From an uncultured Planctomycetaceae bacterium (lineage in GTDB: Bacteria; Planctomycetota; Planctomycetia; Planctomycetales; Planctomycetaceae), in the NCBI GenBank assembly GCA_963815195.1, contig CAWFGE010000023.1, positions 1 to 64,000 on the forward strand: 64,000 nucleotides of DNA, written 5' to 3'. Numbering within the stretch: the stretch's first letter is position 1; each line of letters begins with the position of its first letter. Positions 1 through 7,374 of this stretch are shown one piece after another. Position numbers and translations under genes: made by a program. Below the pieces are notes generated by a model. It was not told the origin of the DNA and did not search any database. It saw nothing but the letters and a program-made list of their open reading frames with translations.

Positions 1-2067
1 TTGTTGTGCCCCCTTGGGATAGTGATTTGCTCGGTTTCGTGATTTTTGAGTTTTAGCATGGCGTCTTTAACCTCCTCAGTTTTGGGAAACAGATAGCACC
101 GATAAGTTGGATCGACAGAAACCACGATCTGTCTTTGCTCAATTTTATGATACATCCAGGATATGTTGCGCCCGATTTCCTGAGCCATTTCCGCGGCGGT
201 CCAGGCATGGGGCAGGTTCTTTGCACGCGGGCTTTTGATCCGGTAGCGATGTCTTAACTTGTTCACGATTTGCGAGGTGAATTGTTCGCCACGACAGGGA
301 TGATGGCCTTCGCGATTGAGATCCGCCGCGATCATTTCACTCGACCGGCCTTCGCTGGTTTCTTGCCGGATGCGTTCCACGATGTGCTCTTCCAAGTCCG
401 TGTGTTTCATTGAAAAACGCCGTAGGAGAGCCGACGTTTCGGTCACCGAACCGCCGGCCCAGACCATGCGAATTTGCACCAGCCCATCCGATTGCCGGTG
501 AAGATTGACTCCCGTAATCATCGTCCGCAACAACGACTTCTTCGCCTCCCAAGACAACTCGGGCCAGAGTTCGGGAAGCTGCCGCCCGACATCCGCGAAG
601 GCGTCTCGCAAGGACTTTGGTACGCGGATCGGTTGGGGAATTTCTCGGCGGGCATCCGCCAGGTTTTCTTCGGCTTGCTTTTGCGCCAACAAAGCCGATT
701 CCCATTTCTCTTCCAGACTGGCCGCAATCAAACGGTTCTTGGGATCGACACAGTCGTATTGTTGCTCGGCCCGATGGGCGGCGTATTGCAAGCACCGACG
801 TCTTGCTCCAAATGCCGAACCACGTCCGCATGCGTGCGAGCCCTTTCGGCGGAGAGTTTCTCCAACACATCGATCTCGGCAGGCCGCAGCACTTCAAAGA
901 AAGCTTCCGTCACCGCCTCGTCGATCTTGTTGCCGCCCAAGTACTGGCAGGATCGTTGGGCGTAATGCCGATAGCCAGAATTGCATGAGTATTGAAAGCG
1001 GTTCTCCTTGTAATTCACTCCCATCGTTCGACCGCATTTTCCGCAGCGCAATAAGCCCGTTAACAACGCGCAGCCGTTGCGGATGGCTTGCTTGGCGGCG
1101 AGTCGTTGTTGGATGCGGAGGTTGTTTTGAGCGATTCGGCGTTGGTTGTCTTCGTACTGCTCCCAACTGATATAGGCCGGGTAGATGCCGGGAATTAAGA
1201 CCGACCATTCCGCTTGGGGCCGGCGCGTGCGACCCGTGGCAGGACGACCGGGAATTCGTAGCGTGGGATCGACTTGCCGACGCCCATGAGCAAACGCGCC
1301 TGCATAAGCCGGGTTATGCAGGATCGAGCCCAACGAAGCGGCCGTGGCTTCTCTCCAAAACACTTCGCCCGCATAAAGGCCCGAAACTTGGCGCCGGGGA
1401 ATCTTCAAATTTTTCTTGGCCAGGAACGTCAAGACTTTTTGAATCGTGCCCAACTCCACGAACTTGTCGAACACCAAATGCAATCGCTTTTGAATGCTCA
1501 GATCGGGATCGAGCATCACCGTCTTGTCCAGATTGCGGACCAAGCCCGTCGGCAAGTTTTGCACCAACTCGCCCCGCGCGGCCTTCGACAATCGACCCGC
1601 GTCCAATCGCAATCGGAGGCTATGGAGTCTGCCGAAGACATCGTGCCCTTCAAGCCTAAGAGGAGCCTGTCGTTGAAATCCCGTGGATGATACAACCCAT
1701 CCACATCACCGATGAGTGTGTCAAAGATCGCACACAATTCCAACAGTCGATGCCAATCCACATCGTTGCGGGAAAGCCGTGAAACTTCATAGCCCAGAAT
1801 GATGCCAACCTTACCCAAGCCGACGTCGGCGACCATCTGTTGAAAGGCCCCGCGTCCCGCCGTTTGCGTGGCCGATTGCCCTTGATCATCCTCCAGGATG
1901 CTGACTTGTTCCGGCTTCCACCCCAACTCCAACAACCGGGTTTTCAAGGCTCGCTGGTTGTGGGCACTCTCTTGGTTTTTCTCGACCTGCTTCGTCGTGC
2001 TCTGACGAAGATATACGATCCCGCGGCGATTCAAATGGCTGGTGCTGACTTTCATCGATCCGTTCAT
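1..2067 (-). CDS. Large serine recombinase (resolvase + recombinase + zinc ribbon + coiled coil + C-terminal HTH-like extension); frameshifts near 1615 and 790; runs off the left edge
   Basis: YLRQST nucleophile motif, EVSRLSR, DRLLLGLKGTMS, ILHNPAYAG, CGKCG...C...C zinc ribbon; corrected frame gives QYDCVDPKNRLIAASLE and stays open to base 1. Confidence 0.9.
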
Positions 2068-2170
2068 GCTCCAGTTCCTCCGTTAGAATGACGACGATTT
2101 GCTGGATGATCCGCTGCTGCTCTGGAAGAGTCAGACGGTTCCACACCTGGTCCGTGGCAATGGGTGACAT
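1886..2170 (-). CDS. Small helical protein preceding and overlapping the recombinase start (possible accessory/directionality factor)
   Basis: MSPIATDQVWNRLTLPEQQRIIQQIVVILTEELEHE, with GGAAG upstream. The 3' part overlaps the recombinase and is uncertain. Confidence 0.5.
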   Translation of the reverse strand: MSPIATDQVWNRLTLPEQQRIIQQIVVILTEELEHERIDESQHQPFESPRDRISSSEHDEAGREKPRECPQPASLENPVVGVGVEAGTSQHPGG

Positions 2171-2462
2171 CGGCTTCCCTCCGAGAAAGAATATCCCGAA
2201 AGGTAGTCACCAAATCCTGGAGCGCGTCCAGGGTCAGACAGGAAGTTTTTTGGGGAGGAGCGGTGGAAAGGTTCGTGCTGCTGACGTCGATGTAGGTCAT
2301 CTCGTCAGGAAAAATCTCGACTTGATAATACTGACGATAACCTGGCAGGCGGGCTAAGCCGAACAAATCAAATGTTCGGCCATAAAGCGGATGGGCCGGA
2401 TCGGTGACGGTGATCTCACCGCGCGATAACTGAGTGACCAGAGGTGTCTTGTGATGGTCGGA
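2064..2462 (-). CDS. DUF5372/Y4bD-like small protein, with no start codon inside the element upstream of its conserved motif
   Basis: Frame open from the junction: SDHHKTPLVTQLSRGEITVTDPAHPLYGRTFDLFG...LTLDALQDLV. Resembles the VTHPFHPLxG proteins seen upstream of such recombinases. Confidence 0.6.
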   Translation of the reverse strand, partial: SDHHKTPLVTQLSRGEITVTDPAHPLYGRTFDLFGLARLPGYRQYYQVEIFPDEMTYIDVSSTNLSTAPPQKTSCLTLDALQDLVTTFRDILSRREADVTHCHGPGVEPSDSSRAAADHPANRRHSNGGTGA

Positions 2463-2463
2463 C

Positions 2464-2796
2464 CTTTCCAGTGCCGGGCGGACCGAGCAGTAAAATGTCG
2501 GCGGCTTCGCGAATAAACTTCCCCGTCGCCAGGTCCATGATTCGGCGTTTGGGCAGCGAGGGGTTGAAGGAAAAATCGAGTTGGTCGAGGGTTTTCATCT
2601 CGCGGAACTGGGCCAGCTTCAATCGCCGATCGATCGCCCGTTGGCGACGGATTGCCAACTCATCGCTTAACACCAGTTCCAAGAACTCGGCATGCGACAA
2701 GCCGTTGCCGATGGCTTCTTGCAGCCTGACTTCCAAGGATTCGATCAGGCCGCTCAAGCGGAGTTGCTTCAGCATCTGCATTAAATTTCCATTCAT
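2464..2796 (-). pseudogene. istB: IS21 helper ATPase IstB, 5' fragment truncated at Walker A
   Basis: LKQLRLSG...KTLDQLDFSFNP...ILLLGPPGTGK, then unrelated residues and a stop at 2416. Confidence 0.9.
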
Positions 2797-4377
2797 CGGT
2801 TTTGCTCCTTTCGAAGAGCGGCTTTGACAAACTCGGAATAACTCACCAGCGGCCGAATGACCGGGTGTTCGTCTAAAAACTCAAACTGGGCTTGCACGGG
2901 GGCGTTGCGGTCGATCAGCTTGCGAACGGTCCTCAGTCGGTAGGCTCCATACGAGTGGGCGGTGCGGCACGCGCGTTCGATGTCCTCGCGCGAATGCTTG
3001 TCGGCCAGTTGCTTGAGGCCCATCAACACCCGCACGCCCTCAATGCCGCGTGCTCCCAGCATGGCCGCGGACCAATCCCTGGTTTCCGGGCCGATTTCGC
3101 TGACTTTCGCCAGCCACCAGGTGGCTCCGCGTTCCACGCCGGAGATTTTCCTCGCGTGCAAATGGGTGTTCTGCGTGCTGAACTTTCCCGGTTCTTGACG
3201 GGCATGCAAGGCGATCTGTTCCAGCTTGGCATTGAAGATGCGCACCAGCCGCGCATCCCAGCGCACCCAGACTTTCCTTCCCAGAAATTCCGGCGGCACG
3301 GAGTAATACGCCTTGTCCACGGAAATGTGCCCATCGCGATGCACGCTCCGCAGGGCTTCATGGAAAAACGGAAATCGTTCCAACGGCAACGGCAACGGAA
3401 ACAGTGCTGACCGTTCCCGTTCGCGAAACGCCTTGCCCACTTGCTCTCTGGTCGTTCCATGAATCCGCGTATCGGCCACGGTGGATTCCCAGGCCCACAA
3501 GTGTTCGTTCTGTTCGCGCAGGCTTCGGAACGTCCGCCCTTTGAGTGCGTTTTCTTGGGCGTAGTCCACGCCGCGTTCGACCTTGCCTTTGTGTCGGGGC
3601 GTGCGAACCCGCGTGGGCAAAAACACCGTGCCGTAGTGCGCGGCGAACGATTGAATCTTGGGGTTCAGTTCCGGGTCGAACCAATCCGCCTTGCTCACGG
3701 CGGCGCGCAAGTTATCGATGATCAGAGTCTTGGGCACACCTCCAAAATGCCAGAACGCACTCTCCAGACACCGAATGAAGTTGTCGGTGGTCTGGCGATC
3801 GATCGCTTCCGTGTAGCCTTTACGGCTGTGGCTCAGCACGACCCGCAACACGTGTGGCCGGCGACGACGGCCGTTCTCATCCACGACGGCCGCGGCTTGG
3901 CCAAAGTCCACTTGAGCTTCCGCGCCGGGCTGCGCATTCCAATCGACGAAACGGCAACTCCTTCGAAGACCGCAACTGCCGCACGAAGCGTTTCACGCTG
4001 TCGTAGCCATGGGGAAAATCATGGTCATTCGACAGGTCCTGGAAAATTCGCTGCGCGGAAAGTCCCTGGCCGAGCTTTTCTAAAATGACATCCCGCCAAG
4101 GCTCGCAGCGGCTCCGCGAAAGTTCCGACTCGTCCTTCTCAGAATCGTCTTCAAGGGCCTCACGAAGGTCCTCCGACCCGGCGGGCAGTTGGCCCTCGGA
4201 CCCGGTGGGCACTTTGGCCTCGGACCCGGTGGGCACTTTGGCCGGTTTTGAAGCGAGATGGGCGGCCACCGTTGAACGGTGAATGCCCAATTCGCGGGCA
4301 ATCTTGCGCAAAGACCAGCCTTGAGTGCGCAAAGTGTGAATGGCTTGAACCGTGTCCATCGAGAGCTGATTCGACAT
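2793..4377 (-). CDS. istA: IS21 transposase IstA (frameshift near 3925)
   Basis: N-terminal HTH SLRKIARELGIHRSTV; QVDFG, IIDNLRA and KGKVERG form the DDE triad; YSVP motif. Confidence 0.93.
4170..4241. repeat. In-frame 24-bp tandem repeat in istA (two identical copies, one degenerate)
   Basis: cctcggacccggtgggcactttgg at 4194-4217 and 4218-4241; degenerate copy at 4170-4193; encodes AKVPTGSE. Confidence 0.9.
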
Positions 4378-4440: not shown

Positions 4441-4491
4441 TGGCCGGTTTTGAACTGCCCACAAGTGGCCGGTTTTCACTGCCCGGTGACA
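4441..4491 (-). repeat. IS21 left terminal repeats (transposase-binding sites)
   Basis: tggccggttttgaactgccc at 4441-4460 and tggccggttttcactgccc at 4466-4484; terminal CA at 4490-4491. Confidence 0.88.
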
Positions 4492-4951
4492 CACGGCACT
4501 GGGCAAGGTGACGCAGCAAAATGGCCGCCGGCTGGCGATACTGGAGGGGAATCTAGCCAAGCCGGAGATCATGTCTGTTGTTTCCAAGCACGGGGACCGG
4601 GCGGTGGACTTTCTCTGGGAGAATCGGAACACTCTCGCTGGGGGAGCGGCACTGACAGCGTTTCTCGTCAATCCCGAGCCGTTTCTGAATGGCACGCGGG
4701 ACATCGCGGAAGTGGCGACAAATGGAATTGTTAAACCCGTTGTGAACGGCGTGTCCACCATCGCCAGCCTGGTATTGGGAGTCCTGGCAGTGCTTCTTGT
4801 TTGTGGAACATCGCTCATTTCCAAGCATGGTTTTCCCCGGCTGTCTCAGATGCATTCGGGGTTCGCATTGCTGAAAAAATCGCGGGTCAAGCTGGAAAGT
4901 GATTCGAAGCGAACCGTTGTGACCGACCAGATTCCTCCTCGGCAAGAGTAG
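4492..4951 (+). pseudogene. 3' part of a membrane protein gene interrupted by IS21
   Basis: Frame open from the IS end (TALGKVTQQNGRRLA...GDRAVDFLWENR...FLVNPEPFLNG) with a C-terminal hydrophobic helix and no RBS. Confidence 0.6.
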
Positions 4952-4997
4952 GTTGTAACCCGGCCAGGGAGGGCCTTATTTCCGAAAGGATAAATCA

Positions 4998-5090
4998 ATG
5001 GAATTCATCGTGATTCTCGCCATACTGGCCGGCCTTGGTCTCAAATACAAAGTCAAGGAAACCGAGTGGCGACTGCGCAATAAGAAATGA
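4998..5090 (+). CDS. 30-aa single-TM basic peptide (not in the ORF track)
   Basis: AAAGGA RBS, then MEFIVILAILAGLGLKYKVKETEWRLRNKK*. Confidence 0.6.
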   Translation: MEFIVILAILAGLGLKYKVKETEWRLRNKK

Positions 5091-5131
5091 ACGTCCCTGG
5101 GCCAGGGAGGGCCTGCTTTGTCAGGTGCTAT

Positions 5132-5331
5132 ATGTCAAAGCCATTCCGTGATGAATTCGCGTGGGCAACCGCCTGCCGCTTGGTTGATATTGTCGCGCCA
5201 TGTCTTCGCGAGGAAGAGCAGGCCGATGCCCGCGAAGAATTCTACGATCTCATCATAGTGGCGCTTAGGGCCTACGACGGCATGTCGAGCCGTAAGGCGG
5301 TTCGGCGGCGGTTCGCCCCAGCAATAACTGA
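5132..5331 (+). CDS. Small hypothetical island protein (probably a separate gene, fused to the next ORF by an indel)
   Basis: MSKPFRDEFAWATACRLVDIVAPCLREEEQADAREEFYD...; one extra C in the gcccc run would end it as PSNN* near 5331. Confidence 0.5.
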
Positions 5332-5428
5332 GAAATGCCACAAGCAGTCAGAGATAGGCTGCATAAACGGCCCGCATGGATATGGAGTGAAAACCAGTCG
5401 CGGGCATTTCGGTTTCGGAGACATGATA

Positions 5429-5704
5429 ATGACACTCGACGAACGGCTGGAGAAAATCGAGTCCATGCTCGCGGTCTTGATCGAACGCCAGATGGTGAGG
5501 GAATTCTATGAGGTGGAGGAGTTTGCCCGGATCGTGGGCAAAGCTCCCTTTACCGTCCGCGAATGGGCACGGCTCGGCCGCATCAATGCGCAGAAACGGG
5601 GATCAGGTCGCGGGCTGCATGCCGCCTGGGTGTTCTCACATGCGGAGTTGCTCCGGTATCAGCGGGACGGGCTGCTTCCCATCCCGCGATTGCAAGGCCA
5701 GTAG
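5429..5704 (+). CDS. Excisionase-like HTH (HTH_17/MerR-type) protein
   Basis: GGAG RBS; YEVEEFARIVGKAPFTVREWARLGRINAQK; convergent with the integrase. Confidence 0.75.
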   Translation: MTLDERLEKIESMLAVLIERQMVREFYEVEEFARIVGKAPFTVREWARLGRINAQKRGSGRGLHAAWVFSHAELLRYQRDGLLPIPRLQGQ

Positions 5705-5708
5705 GAAT

Positions 5709-7142
5709 TCACAAGCGTGAGGACTGCCGGTCGCCTTCAACTCCCCGTGTGTTCTCAGTCTTCCGGCTCCGTTCTGCTGTCTGCGGCTGCGATTCGTGTT
5801 GTGTATGCGAAGCGCCGAAAATGGCGGAAAGGGCTTCCCGTTGCGTGCTGGGATACATGTGGGAGTAGCGGCGGCTCATCTCCTGGCTCATGTGTCCGGC
5901 CCACGTTTCCACCAGCCGTTGGTCGATCCCCCGGTTGGCACAGGCGGATACGAACGAGTGCCGCAGGACATGCCAACCCTTCAACACGTTCCATTGGCTG
6001 TTACTCAGGGTGCGTTTGAAATGATCATGGGCCTCGTCCTTGGTGAGAGGCGTTAGCGTCCCGGTCTTGCGTTGGTGAACGCCGGCCTGTCGCTGTGTTG
6101 CTTTGGTGGATCGCTTCTTTTGACCCAGGTGGCCGGTGGTGGAACTCCGCTTCCGACTGCGGTTCACGATGGTTTCATGGCAGAATAGCCAGGAGCCGCC
6201 GGGATGATGGGACAACCATTCCTGCATGACCTCGACGAGAAATTCGGACATCGGCACGCGGCGGGTTGTCTCACGTCCCTTGACTCGCTTTCGTTCATGA
6301 ATCGTCAGGATTTGGCCCTCAAGATCCACATCCGCCACTTTCAGCCGGAGCAGTTCCGAGCGCCGTGCCCCGGTGTGAGCCGCCAGGCAAAACATGGAAT
6401 AGATGAATCCGTGAGCGGCATGAGCTTCGACATGGCGGAGCAGTTCCGAGATTTCGCCGATCTGGAGATACAGCGAATCGTACAACTCCGCTTGCTGGGC
6501 TTCGCTGAGTCCCCCGGCGTTGATCTGCCGTTCGATTTCCGCGAGGGTCTGGAACGGTGGCTTTTCGGTCGTTTTCGGGTAACGCAGGCCCTCATTGGGA
6601 AATCGGCCAGAAACAAGGTCCATTCTCGCGGCCCAATTCCAGGCCGTCCGCAGTGAGACGATCTCTTTTTTGATGGTCGTGGCCGAGACTTTTCGGGCCT
6701 TCTTGCCATGAGGTTTCATTCGCCCGTCAACGTATCCTTGAAGATCCGCCAACGTCAGATCGGCAATGGGAAAGGAGTCGCCAAAATGCCTTGCGAAATG
6801 GCGAAAGTGAATTTGGAGGGTGGCCAGCGTGCTTGCTTCCAGGGAGTTCTCATGGGTTGCCAGATACTGCTGCTGAAGGGCCTGAAGCGTCAGTTTGGCG
6901 GGAGCGGGAAGGGGGTCTTCGACGGGCGGCTTCTGGCCATCAAATTGAACATACTCCACGATGTCCATGCCTGCCGGCAGGACGGCCAGGTTTTGCCTCA
7001 GCCGCATCAGCAGATAATCGACCTGGGCGCATTTTGTGGCCGCTTCTCCGCTGGACACTTTGCCAATGGTAAAACTCTGCTGTTTACCCTGGTATCGGAA
7101 GATCACCCGGTAGGTTTCATTTCGGTATTGCAAGGCGGCCAT
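5709..7142 (-). CDS. Tyrosine recombinase/integrase
   Basis: TGARRSE, HVLRHS, AGH, RRYSH catalytic residues; N-terminal arm-binding-like region; adjacent to a tRNA. Confidence 0.95.
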   Translation of the reverse strand: MAALQYRNETYRVIFRYQGKQQSFTIGKVSSGEAATKCAQVDYLLMRLRQNLAVLPAGMDIVEYVQFDGQKPPVEDPLPAPAKLTLQALQQQYLATHENSLEASTLATLQIHFRHFARHFGDSFPIADLTLADLQGYVDGRMKPHGKKARKVSATTIKKEIVSLRTAWNWAARMDLVSGRFPNEGLRYPKTTEKPPFQTLAEIERQINAGGLSEAQQAELYDSLYLQIGEISELLRHVEAHAAHGFIYSMFCLAAHTGARRSELLRLKVADVDLEGQILTIHERKRVKGRETTRRVPMSEFLVEVMQEWLSHHPGGSWLFCHETIVNRSRKRSSTTGHLGQKKRSTKATQRQAGVHQRKTGTLTPLTKDEAHDHFKRTLSNSQWNVLKGWHVLRHSFVSACANRGIDQRLVETWAGHMSQEMSRRYSHMYPSTQREALSAIFGASHTQHESQPQTAERSRKTENTRGVEGDRQSSRL

Positions 7143-7173
7143 CGAATTGCGGCTCCAATGTCACCGCAACGCC

Positions 7174-7191
7174 GTTACCATTTTGTTACCA
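7174..7191. promoter_or_regulatory. Candidate integrase arm-type sites
   Basis: gttacca repeated with 11-bp period (7174-7180, 7185-7191) between the int start and the tRNA. Confidence 0.45.
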
Positions 7192-7221
7192 ATTCGGTTT
7201 TTCCGGCTCCGAGAAATGCGT

Positions 7222-7253
7222 TGCGGCTTCCTAAATAATTCTAGGAAGCCGCA
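7222..7253 (-). terminator. Hairpin downstream of the tRNA (probable terminator)
   Basis: Perfect 12-bp stem tgcggcttccta/taggaagccgca with an 8-nt loop; no clean U tract. Confidence 0.55.
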
Positions 7254-7289
7254 CGAAAAGGCCATGTTTTTCAGGGCTTTTTGCCTGAG

Positions 7290-7374
7290 TGCCCAAGAGA
7301 GGACTCGAACCTCCACGTCCGTTAAGGACACTAGGTCCTGAACCTAGCGCGTCTGCCAATTCCGCCACTTGGGC
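7290..7374 (-). tRNA. tRNA-Leu (anticodon CAG), CCA not encoded
   Basis: GCCCAAG/CTTGGGC acceptor stem, CTAGG-TTCAGGA-CCTAG anticodon arm, long variable arm, GGTTCGAGTCC T arm. Confidence 0.97.

Follow-up and report, generated by a model that had tools for sequence, protein, structure and literature searches.

The window – the whole 64,000-nt stretch of DNA considered here – covers the opening 64 kb of contig C23, one of the 25 contigs of an 8.9-Mb genome. Near its left edge lies a copy of IS21 that starts at position 4491 on the reverse strand and whose helper gene, istB, is interrupted by a compact element carrying a large serine recombinase, hereafter E1 (Table 1). The istB gene opens with an ATG at 2796 and its remaining 5' half matches positions 2-106 of the 238 in Pfam IstB_IS21 (E 4.6e-26); an intact relative (89% DNA identity) is found at C23:241690. 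The istA gene of the window copy contains one extra base at 3930, while the copy on contig C18 is an open frame. An initial annotation had read LLGPPGTGK followed by unrelated sequence: this junction is present and falls exactly at 2465/2464, with host sequence ending in the AA (2466-2465) of the Lys codon. E1 thus starts at 2464, inside the Walker A Lys codon, and the contig ends 12 nt before the right end of the element. The gene order given in that annotation (two small ORFs, then a large serine recombinase) also holds, but the recombinase of the window copy lies in three pieces. The IS21 itself sits in an island (4492-7374) adjoining a tRNA-Leu(CAG) (7289-7374); the island also holds an HTH_17 excisionase-like ORF (5087-5704) and a tyrosine integrase gene (5709-7142), and an ORF ending at 4951 appears to have been cut by the IS21 insertion.

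Table 1. Features of the IS21 copy and of the element within it (window positions unless a contig is named).
Feature	Position	Strand	Basis or remark
E1 (2,476 bp + AA core = 2,478 bp)	1..2464	-	other copies in genome
Large serine recombinase, 691 aa in intact copies	1..2067	-	Pfam, fold matches; ATG 2067
ORF2, candidate directionality factor, 94 aa	1886..2170	-	ATG 2170; frame continues into recombinase gene
ORF1, DUF5372-like	2064..2464	-	no start codon inside inserted element
attL crossover core AA (first two bases of Walker A Lys codon)	2465..2466	-	common to all left/right junctions
5' part of IS21 istB, ending at Walker A Lys	2465..2796	-	IstB_IS21 and IS21_help_AAA matches
IS21 transposase istA	2793..4377	-	transpos_IS21 matches
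IS21 left terminal inverted repeat	4445..4491	-	matches right ends elsewhere in genome
Second family element	C21:190-2790 (L002); also C14 end, C19 end, C18, C16		5 places in genome

E1 encodes the DUF5372-like ORF1, an ORF2 of some 40 conserved aa and the 691-aa recombinase. The recombinase gives Pfam matches above cut-off to PF00239 (Resolvase), PF07508 (Recombinase) and PF13408 (Zn_ribbon_recom), with no match to DUF4368. Its structural model (pLDDT 88.9) has serine integrases as best fold matches and contains a coiled coil (helices 396-475). The C-terminal tail resembles HTH_17/MerR-type proteins (atlas 0.95), a domain found on only 14-19% of the members of the top matching clusters. In the window the gene is broken by single-base deletions near 1627/1628 and 796/797; because the copies on C12, C15 and C18 have a single open frame of 691 aa, these frameshifts, like the extra base in istA, are probably consensus errors at the contig end, decay being possible.

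Elsewhere in the genome E1 is present as seven complete copies (99.3-99.6% identity) and one partial copy, which differ from one another by 2-10 substitutions and by scattered single-base indels that vary among copies. All junctions share the 2-bp core AA, there is no target duplication, and the joined flanks restore the istB frame. Three contigs (C14, C19 and C21) begin exactly at the matching 3' half of istB, and one of these ends probably belongs to the window copy. Around the AA the element arms show imperfect inverted symmetry, at 8/20 positions in E1 (shuffle p 0.09), and at 11/20 (p 0.005), 16/20 (p <0.0001) and 11/20 (p 0.014) in the homologs L006, L007 and L036; for the joined arms of E1 and for the second family element the symmetry is not significant against shuffles. 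In the C18 copy, predicted promoters and terminators were no more frequent than in shuffled sequence. No match to E1 was found in the three same-genus genomes searched, which fits a recent arrival and spread. At C6:1400-1550 a strongly AT-shifted remnant of the E1 right end (79% identity) stands ahead of a type-A 3' istB half, reflecting either decay or poor consensus. At C7:38958-39265 a type-A IS21 carrying E1 lies within one of the repeats (at least 5, ~73 nt apart) of a CRISPR-like array.

The copies reveal a highly restricted choice of target. All ends of E1 – 9/9 left and 7/7 right – lie at the Lys codon of the istB Walker A motif, and the targets comprise three types of IS21 (A, B and C) whose IstB C-terminal halves are only 29-42% identical. 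The proposal that the Walker A codons of IS21 istB serve a compact recombinase element as attachment site is therefore upheld by all 16 ends, with the frame restored on joining. Had E1 marked a mere deletion or fusion junction, no 3' half of istB should follow the recombinase: such a half is present, and resumes in frame, in 7/7 complete copies. Intact relatives at C23:241690 and C9:15059 confirm the reading of the empty site. By our pattern the genome contains 269 uninterrupted Walker-A-like sites, six of them in istB, and no E1 end was found in any other gene despite ~260 such sites outside istB; the 269 empty sites nonetheless overstate specificity, because insertions in essential ATPases would be purged. 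One housekeeping-type Walker A site scores above several istB sites by our matrix. A search with the left motif, allowing 3 mismatches, gave three further matches with unrelated flanks, and the one examined proved to be an ordinary coding frame.

The same codon is used outside this genome. Ten distinct loci with close homologs (52-70% identity) were recovered from the genomes and metagenomes searched; seven of these form a clade with E1 (support 1.0 in a tree of 105 recombinases), the other three, found after the tree was built, being placed by identity only. Against the expectation, raised with the initial annotation, that homologs of a low-specificity element would insert at unrelated sites, the right end lies at the Walker A codon of istB in 9/10 close homologs. 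Both ends are visible in six, and element lengths range from 2,478 to 2,499. In the exceptional L012 a tyrosine integrase gene is entered instead, the right end of the element falling on a GK codon pair. The istB codon itself is also used by two sister loci of 40-44% identity. A 400-genome sample from the phylum of the L006 genome held no further close homologs, and a search for the right-end pattern in five genomes did not recover known ends. L012 shows a further arrangement (positions 1-3010), in which the recombinase gene of the close homolog is split at its conserved LLGLK/GT motif by an oppositely oriented family member – a parasite of the parasite. A larger Walker A element at L047 (3,234 bp) has an additional HTH transposase-like ORF (L047:2888-3410) as its cargo; at L049 and L050 this ORF is placed after the recombinase.

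Among more distant relatives, targets sort by recombinase clade, and the insertions fall on codons for conserved motifs in enzymes of other mobile elements: group II intron reverse transcriptase, IS4/IS5 transposases, IS21 IstA, IS3, IS66 TnpB and two further istB sites. Right-hand flanks from 55 loci (150/157 segments) gave a Pfam match in 29 cases, 26 of mobile-element type and three not; cargo probably accounts for two of the 26, and such contigs may be rich in mobile genes in any case. Insertions of the E1 clade at Walker A are all co-oriented with istB; related clades are oriented opposite to their targets, and co-orientation is thus no rule of the family. In a further clade (L130 and L131, 40% identity) the insertion point in istB is a third one, located upstream of Walker A. 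Many relatives on Bradyrhizobium/Rhizobium plasmids (L033 and plasmid matches H7-H40) overlap IS66 tnpB and are annotated only as 'recombinase family protein'. We also considered E1 as part of a phage and rejected this: viral contigs gave just two distant relatives. The genome under study holds a second family element of 2.6 kb, whose recombinase is 35% identical to that of E1 and which lies directly after Walker B of type-B istB with a CC core; it is broken in 3/5 copies, and the allele on C16 is 85% identical.

The two small ORFs differ in how they depend on the state of the element. Joining the ends of E1 supplies ORF1 with a start codon from the right end, giving a protein of 137 aa; with its start codon at the opposite end of the element, ORF1 would be whole only in a circle. 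An in-frame ATG is contributed by the right end in 6/6 Walker A elements tested with both ends (at -13 in five and at -40 in L007), where a random join has a 14% chance each of giving an in-frame start, and the first ORF of the second family element likewise obtains its start only by joining of the ends. ORF1 is a remote member of DUF5372: 30/30 of its atlas matches are DUF5372 (0.94), hhalign gives 81% to the DUF5372 protein of NGR234, and Pfam detects the domain in 11/28 homologs, E1 ORF1 itself having no direct Pfam match. The predicted fold is an SH3/KOW-like barrel plus a helix (pLDDT 84.5); since Foldseek returned no match at E 0.001 and the best Z was 6.2, it indicates only a common barrel.

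ORF2 overlaps the start of the recombinase gene in a shifted frame. Its conserved part, ~40 aa and helical, spans 2170-2054. A pattern search recovered ORF2 at 52 loci, of which 50 were aligned; the invariant W and L were the selection pattern itself and so provide no evidence. No solved relative was found by sequence (best E 0.025). The predicted complex of ORF2 with recombinase residues 130-691 scored 0.74 against 0.00 for the best control, a level reached by 116/157 solved pairs and 2/215 mismatched pairs (contact agreement between runs at least 92%, partner pLDDT at least 77, with our own alignments). The predicted interface comprises recombinase residues 389-405 and 481-545, which flank the coiled coil, and the ORF2 helix packs tightly on helices 505-517. 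Known directionality factors are described as binding at the base of the integrase coiled coil (bioRxiv 2024.06.11.598349; PMC11722253), and ORF2 is predicted by the model to bind at this very place. We infer that ORF2 is a directionality factor licensing excision; the score predicts binding, not function, and may reflect likeness to solved integrase-factor complexes.

Near-identical composites of IS21 and E1 are seen with differing flanks, run X1 adding one more, which suggests that E1 is copied with its IS21 as a unit. No matching target duplications linking the flanks of composite copies were found. A clear target duplication (6-bp) is seen only in an empty IS21 copy (C23:239640-242449), and a 7/8 match between a left end on C12 and a right end on C14 is unproven as such. 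Type-B copies also carry the second element, so that their istB is doubly interrupted, and in 3/7 complete copies the two halves of istB come from different IS21 types. At C12:939-6340 IS21s are nested, a type-A right end lying inside the 3' part of a type-B istB; this chimera is accounted for by loss of DNA between two E1 copies in the nested IS21s, whether in the cell or during assembly.

These arrangements bear on the suggestion, made in the initial annotation, that E1 is an on/off switch for IS21 transposition. Under such a regime a signal would drive excision, restore istB and turn transposition on, just as skin and SPbeta restore sporulation genes. Several features would suit it – excision is frame-exact, ORF2, complete while E1 is inserted, overlaps the start of the recombinase gene in the manner of skr-spoIVCA, the Walker A insertions of the clade all run with istB, and transient excision could explain near-identical left halves of IS21::E1 at different flanks when the assembly has no intact type-A istB. 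However, the assembly contains neither the exact excised istB junction (4 probes) nor a circle junction, and no such joint occurs among the matches listed between the C18 copy and the contigs of runs X1-X4, contigs being prone to drop rare forms; in X1 there is a break 20 nt in from the left end, possibly reflecting a second left allele. Restoring type-B istB would moreover take two separate excisions, with the second element broken in 3/5 copies, the istB halves of 3/7 complete copies are mismatched, many copies are doubly inserted, truncated or chimeric, and related clades run opposite to their targets. A regulated switch is therefore not supported, and we regard it as unlikely. We attach equally little credence to a broader version in which each recombinase clade has the codons of one conserved enzyme motif of another mobile element as its address and two states are built in: a circle-only SH3-like protein steers integration to the host element, excision gates IS21 transposition, and copies recombine. 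If true, the inserted state would make a directionality factor and the circle alone the steering protein, while exchanges between copies would reshuffle the halves of IS21 and cause chromosomal rearrangement.

Three other readings concern specificity, ORF2 and the assembly. E1 might be a TnpX-type transposon of relaxed specificity that recognizes a short G-rich motif around AA, its bias to istB arising from selection against insertions in needed ATPases. The host arms do share little besides codon-constrained bases, and L012 lies in a different gene at a GK pair, but 0 of the ~260 other Walker-A-like sites are occupied when many Walker A ATPases should be dispensable; with nine of ten homologs in istB and target choice following recombinase clade, relaxed specificity seems distinctly improbable. 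It is somewhat less doubtful that ORF2 is an obligatory structural subunit completing the zinc-ribbon domain, with direction set by ORF1 or by the level of recombinase: the tight packing on helices 505-517 and the fact that ORF1, and not ORF2, is state-dependent would accord with this, whereas the match of binding site and gene position to known directionality factors speaks against it, and on balance we doubt it. Finally, a collapsed or mis-joined repeat could have created both copies and chimeras, given that four contig ends break at the E1 right junction, that single-base indels differ between copies and that istB halves are mismatched. Yet in another assembly (X1) E1 and the 3' half of istB lie together on one short-read contig, at 99.9%, the copies differ by 2-10 substitutions and homologs in other genomes use the same site. 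Artefact may explain the chimeras and the frameshifts of the window copy; as an account of the whole it is very improbable.

At the level of sequence, then, the boundaries of E1, its core, its codon-exact target (in three IS21 types and among homologs), the restoration of the frame and the start of ORF1 in the joined form are established, and we infer the existence of an E1 circle. We consider it highly probable that E1 is an element the size of an insertion sequence whose own recombinase excises it as a circle and integrates it at the AA core in the Walker A motif of IstB, inside IS21. Recombinase and ORF2 would excise the circle; the circle would make ORF1 – produced from no other form and perhaps helping integration or target choice – and would integrate by conservative exchange at any istB Walker A site. 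Insertion would knock out the helper ATPase of IS21, E1 could be copied along with IS21, and integration would outweigh excision, leaving IS21 copies mostly silenced rather than switched. In this genome most IS21 helper genes are disabled (of the Walker A sites whose 5' half is visible, 9 are occupied and 6 empty). Such elements would form a layer of parasites on mobile elements, finding safe and always-available sites by reading DNA that is fixed by protein motifs. With its exact att sites, numerous natural targets and candidate directionality factor, this 2.5-kb recombinase system allows directionality and target reading to be tested directly, and it suggests a first role for DUF5372.

E1 is related to an element on pNGR234a of Sinorhizobium fredii NGR234, named NGRIS-4, that is composed of DUF5372, HTH, small ORF and recombinase genes; a literature search found no paper on it. 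It shares with E1 a homologous recombinase (39%) and an upstream DUF5372 gene in the same order, but belongs to a different clade, and its additional HTH gene, placed between the DUF5372 and recombinase genes, is lacking from 2464-2067 of E1.

In Bacillus subtilis, skin (skr-spoIVCA) and SPbeta (sprB-sprA) are gene-interrupting serine-integrase elements with a directionality factor (PMC6957869). Like E1 they lie inside coding sequence, excise frame-exactly and have a tiny gene overlapping the recombinase start out of frame; unlike them, E1 targets the gene of another mobile element, enters many diverged copies of that gene and has no phage cargo, with no regulated excision observed. Tn4451/Tn4453 (TnpX) and the serine-integrase IMEs of Firmicutes, the latter inserted in conserved ICE genes (PMC5704250), resemble E1 in their large serine recombinase, 2-bp core, multiple copies and parasitism of a mobile element's conserved gene. 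E1 differs from Tn4451 in its high codon specificity (16/16 ends at one codon), and its 2.48 kb contain only ORF1, ORF2 and the recombinase, with no relaxase or mobilisation gene and no match to a relaxase family. For serine IMEs the review reports that a directionality factor has not been identified (PMC5704250), whereas E1 carries a candidate. HE-PICI, helper-embedded phage satellites, sit in late genes of prophages, with delayed helper expression described (PMC10111431); they too are parasites integrated within a gene of the element on which they depend, but the target of E1 is an IS helper ATPase and no regulation was observed. Durrant et al. 2022 distinguished site-specific from multi-targeting large serine recombinases and tied clades to one target gene family (PMC10083194); a term search of eight supplements gave 0 occurrences of IstB, IS21 and IS66, and the main text has 0 of IstB. 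Our search of the openly available literature found no published description of an E1-type element, though one may exist. E1 is apparently an undescribed variant of gene-interrupting serine-recombinase elements, to which this locus adds spread over three IS21 types in one genome, doubly inserted and chimeric istB, and a controlled prediction of a directionality factor.
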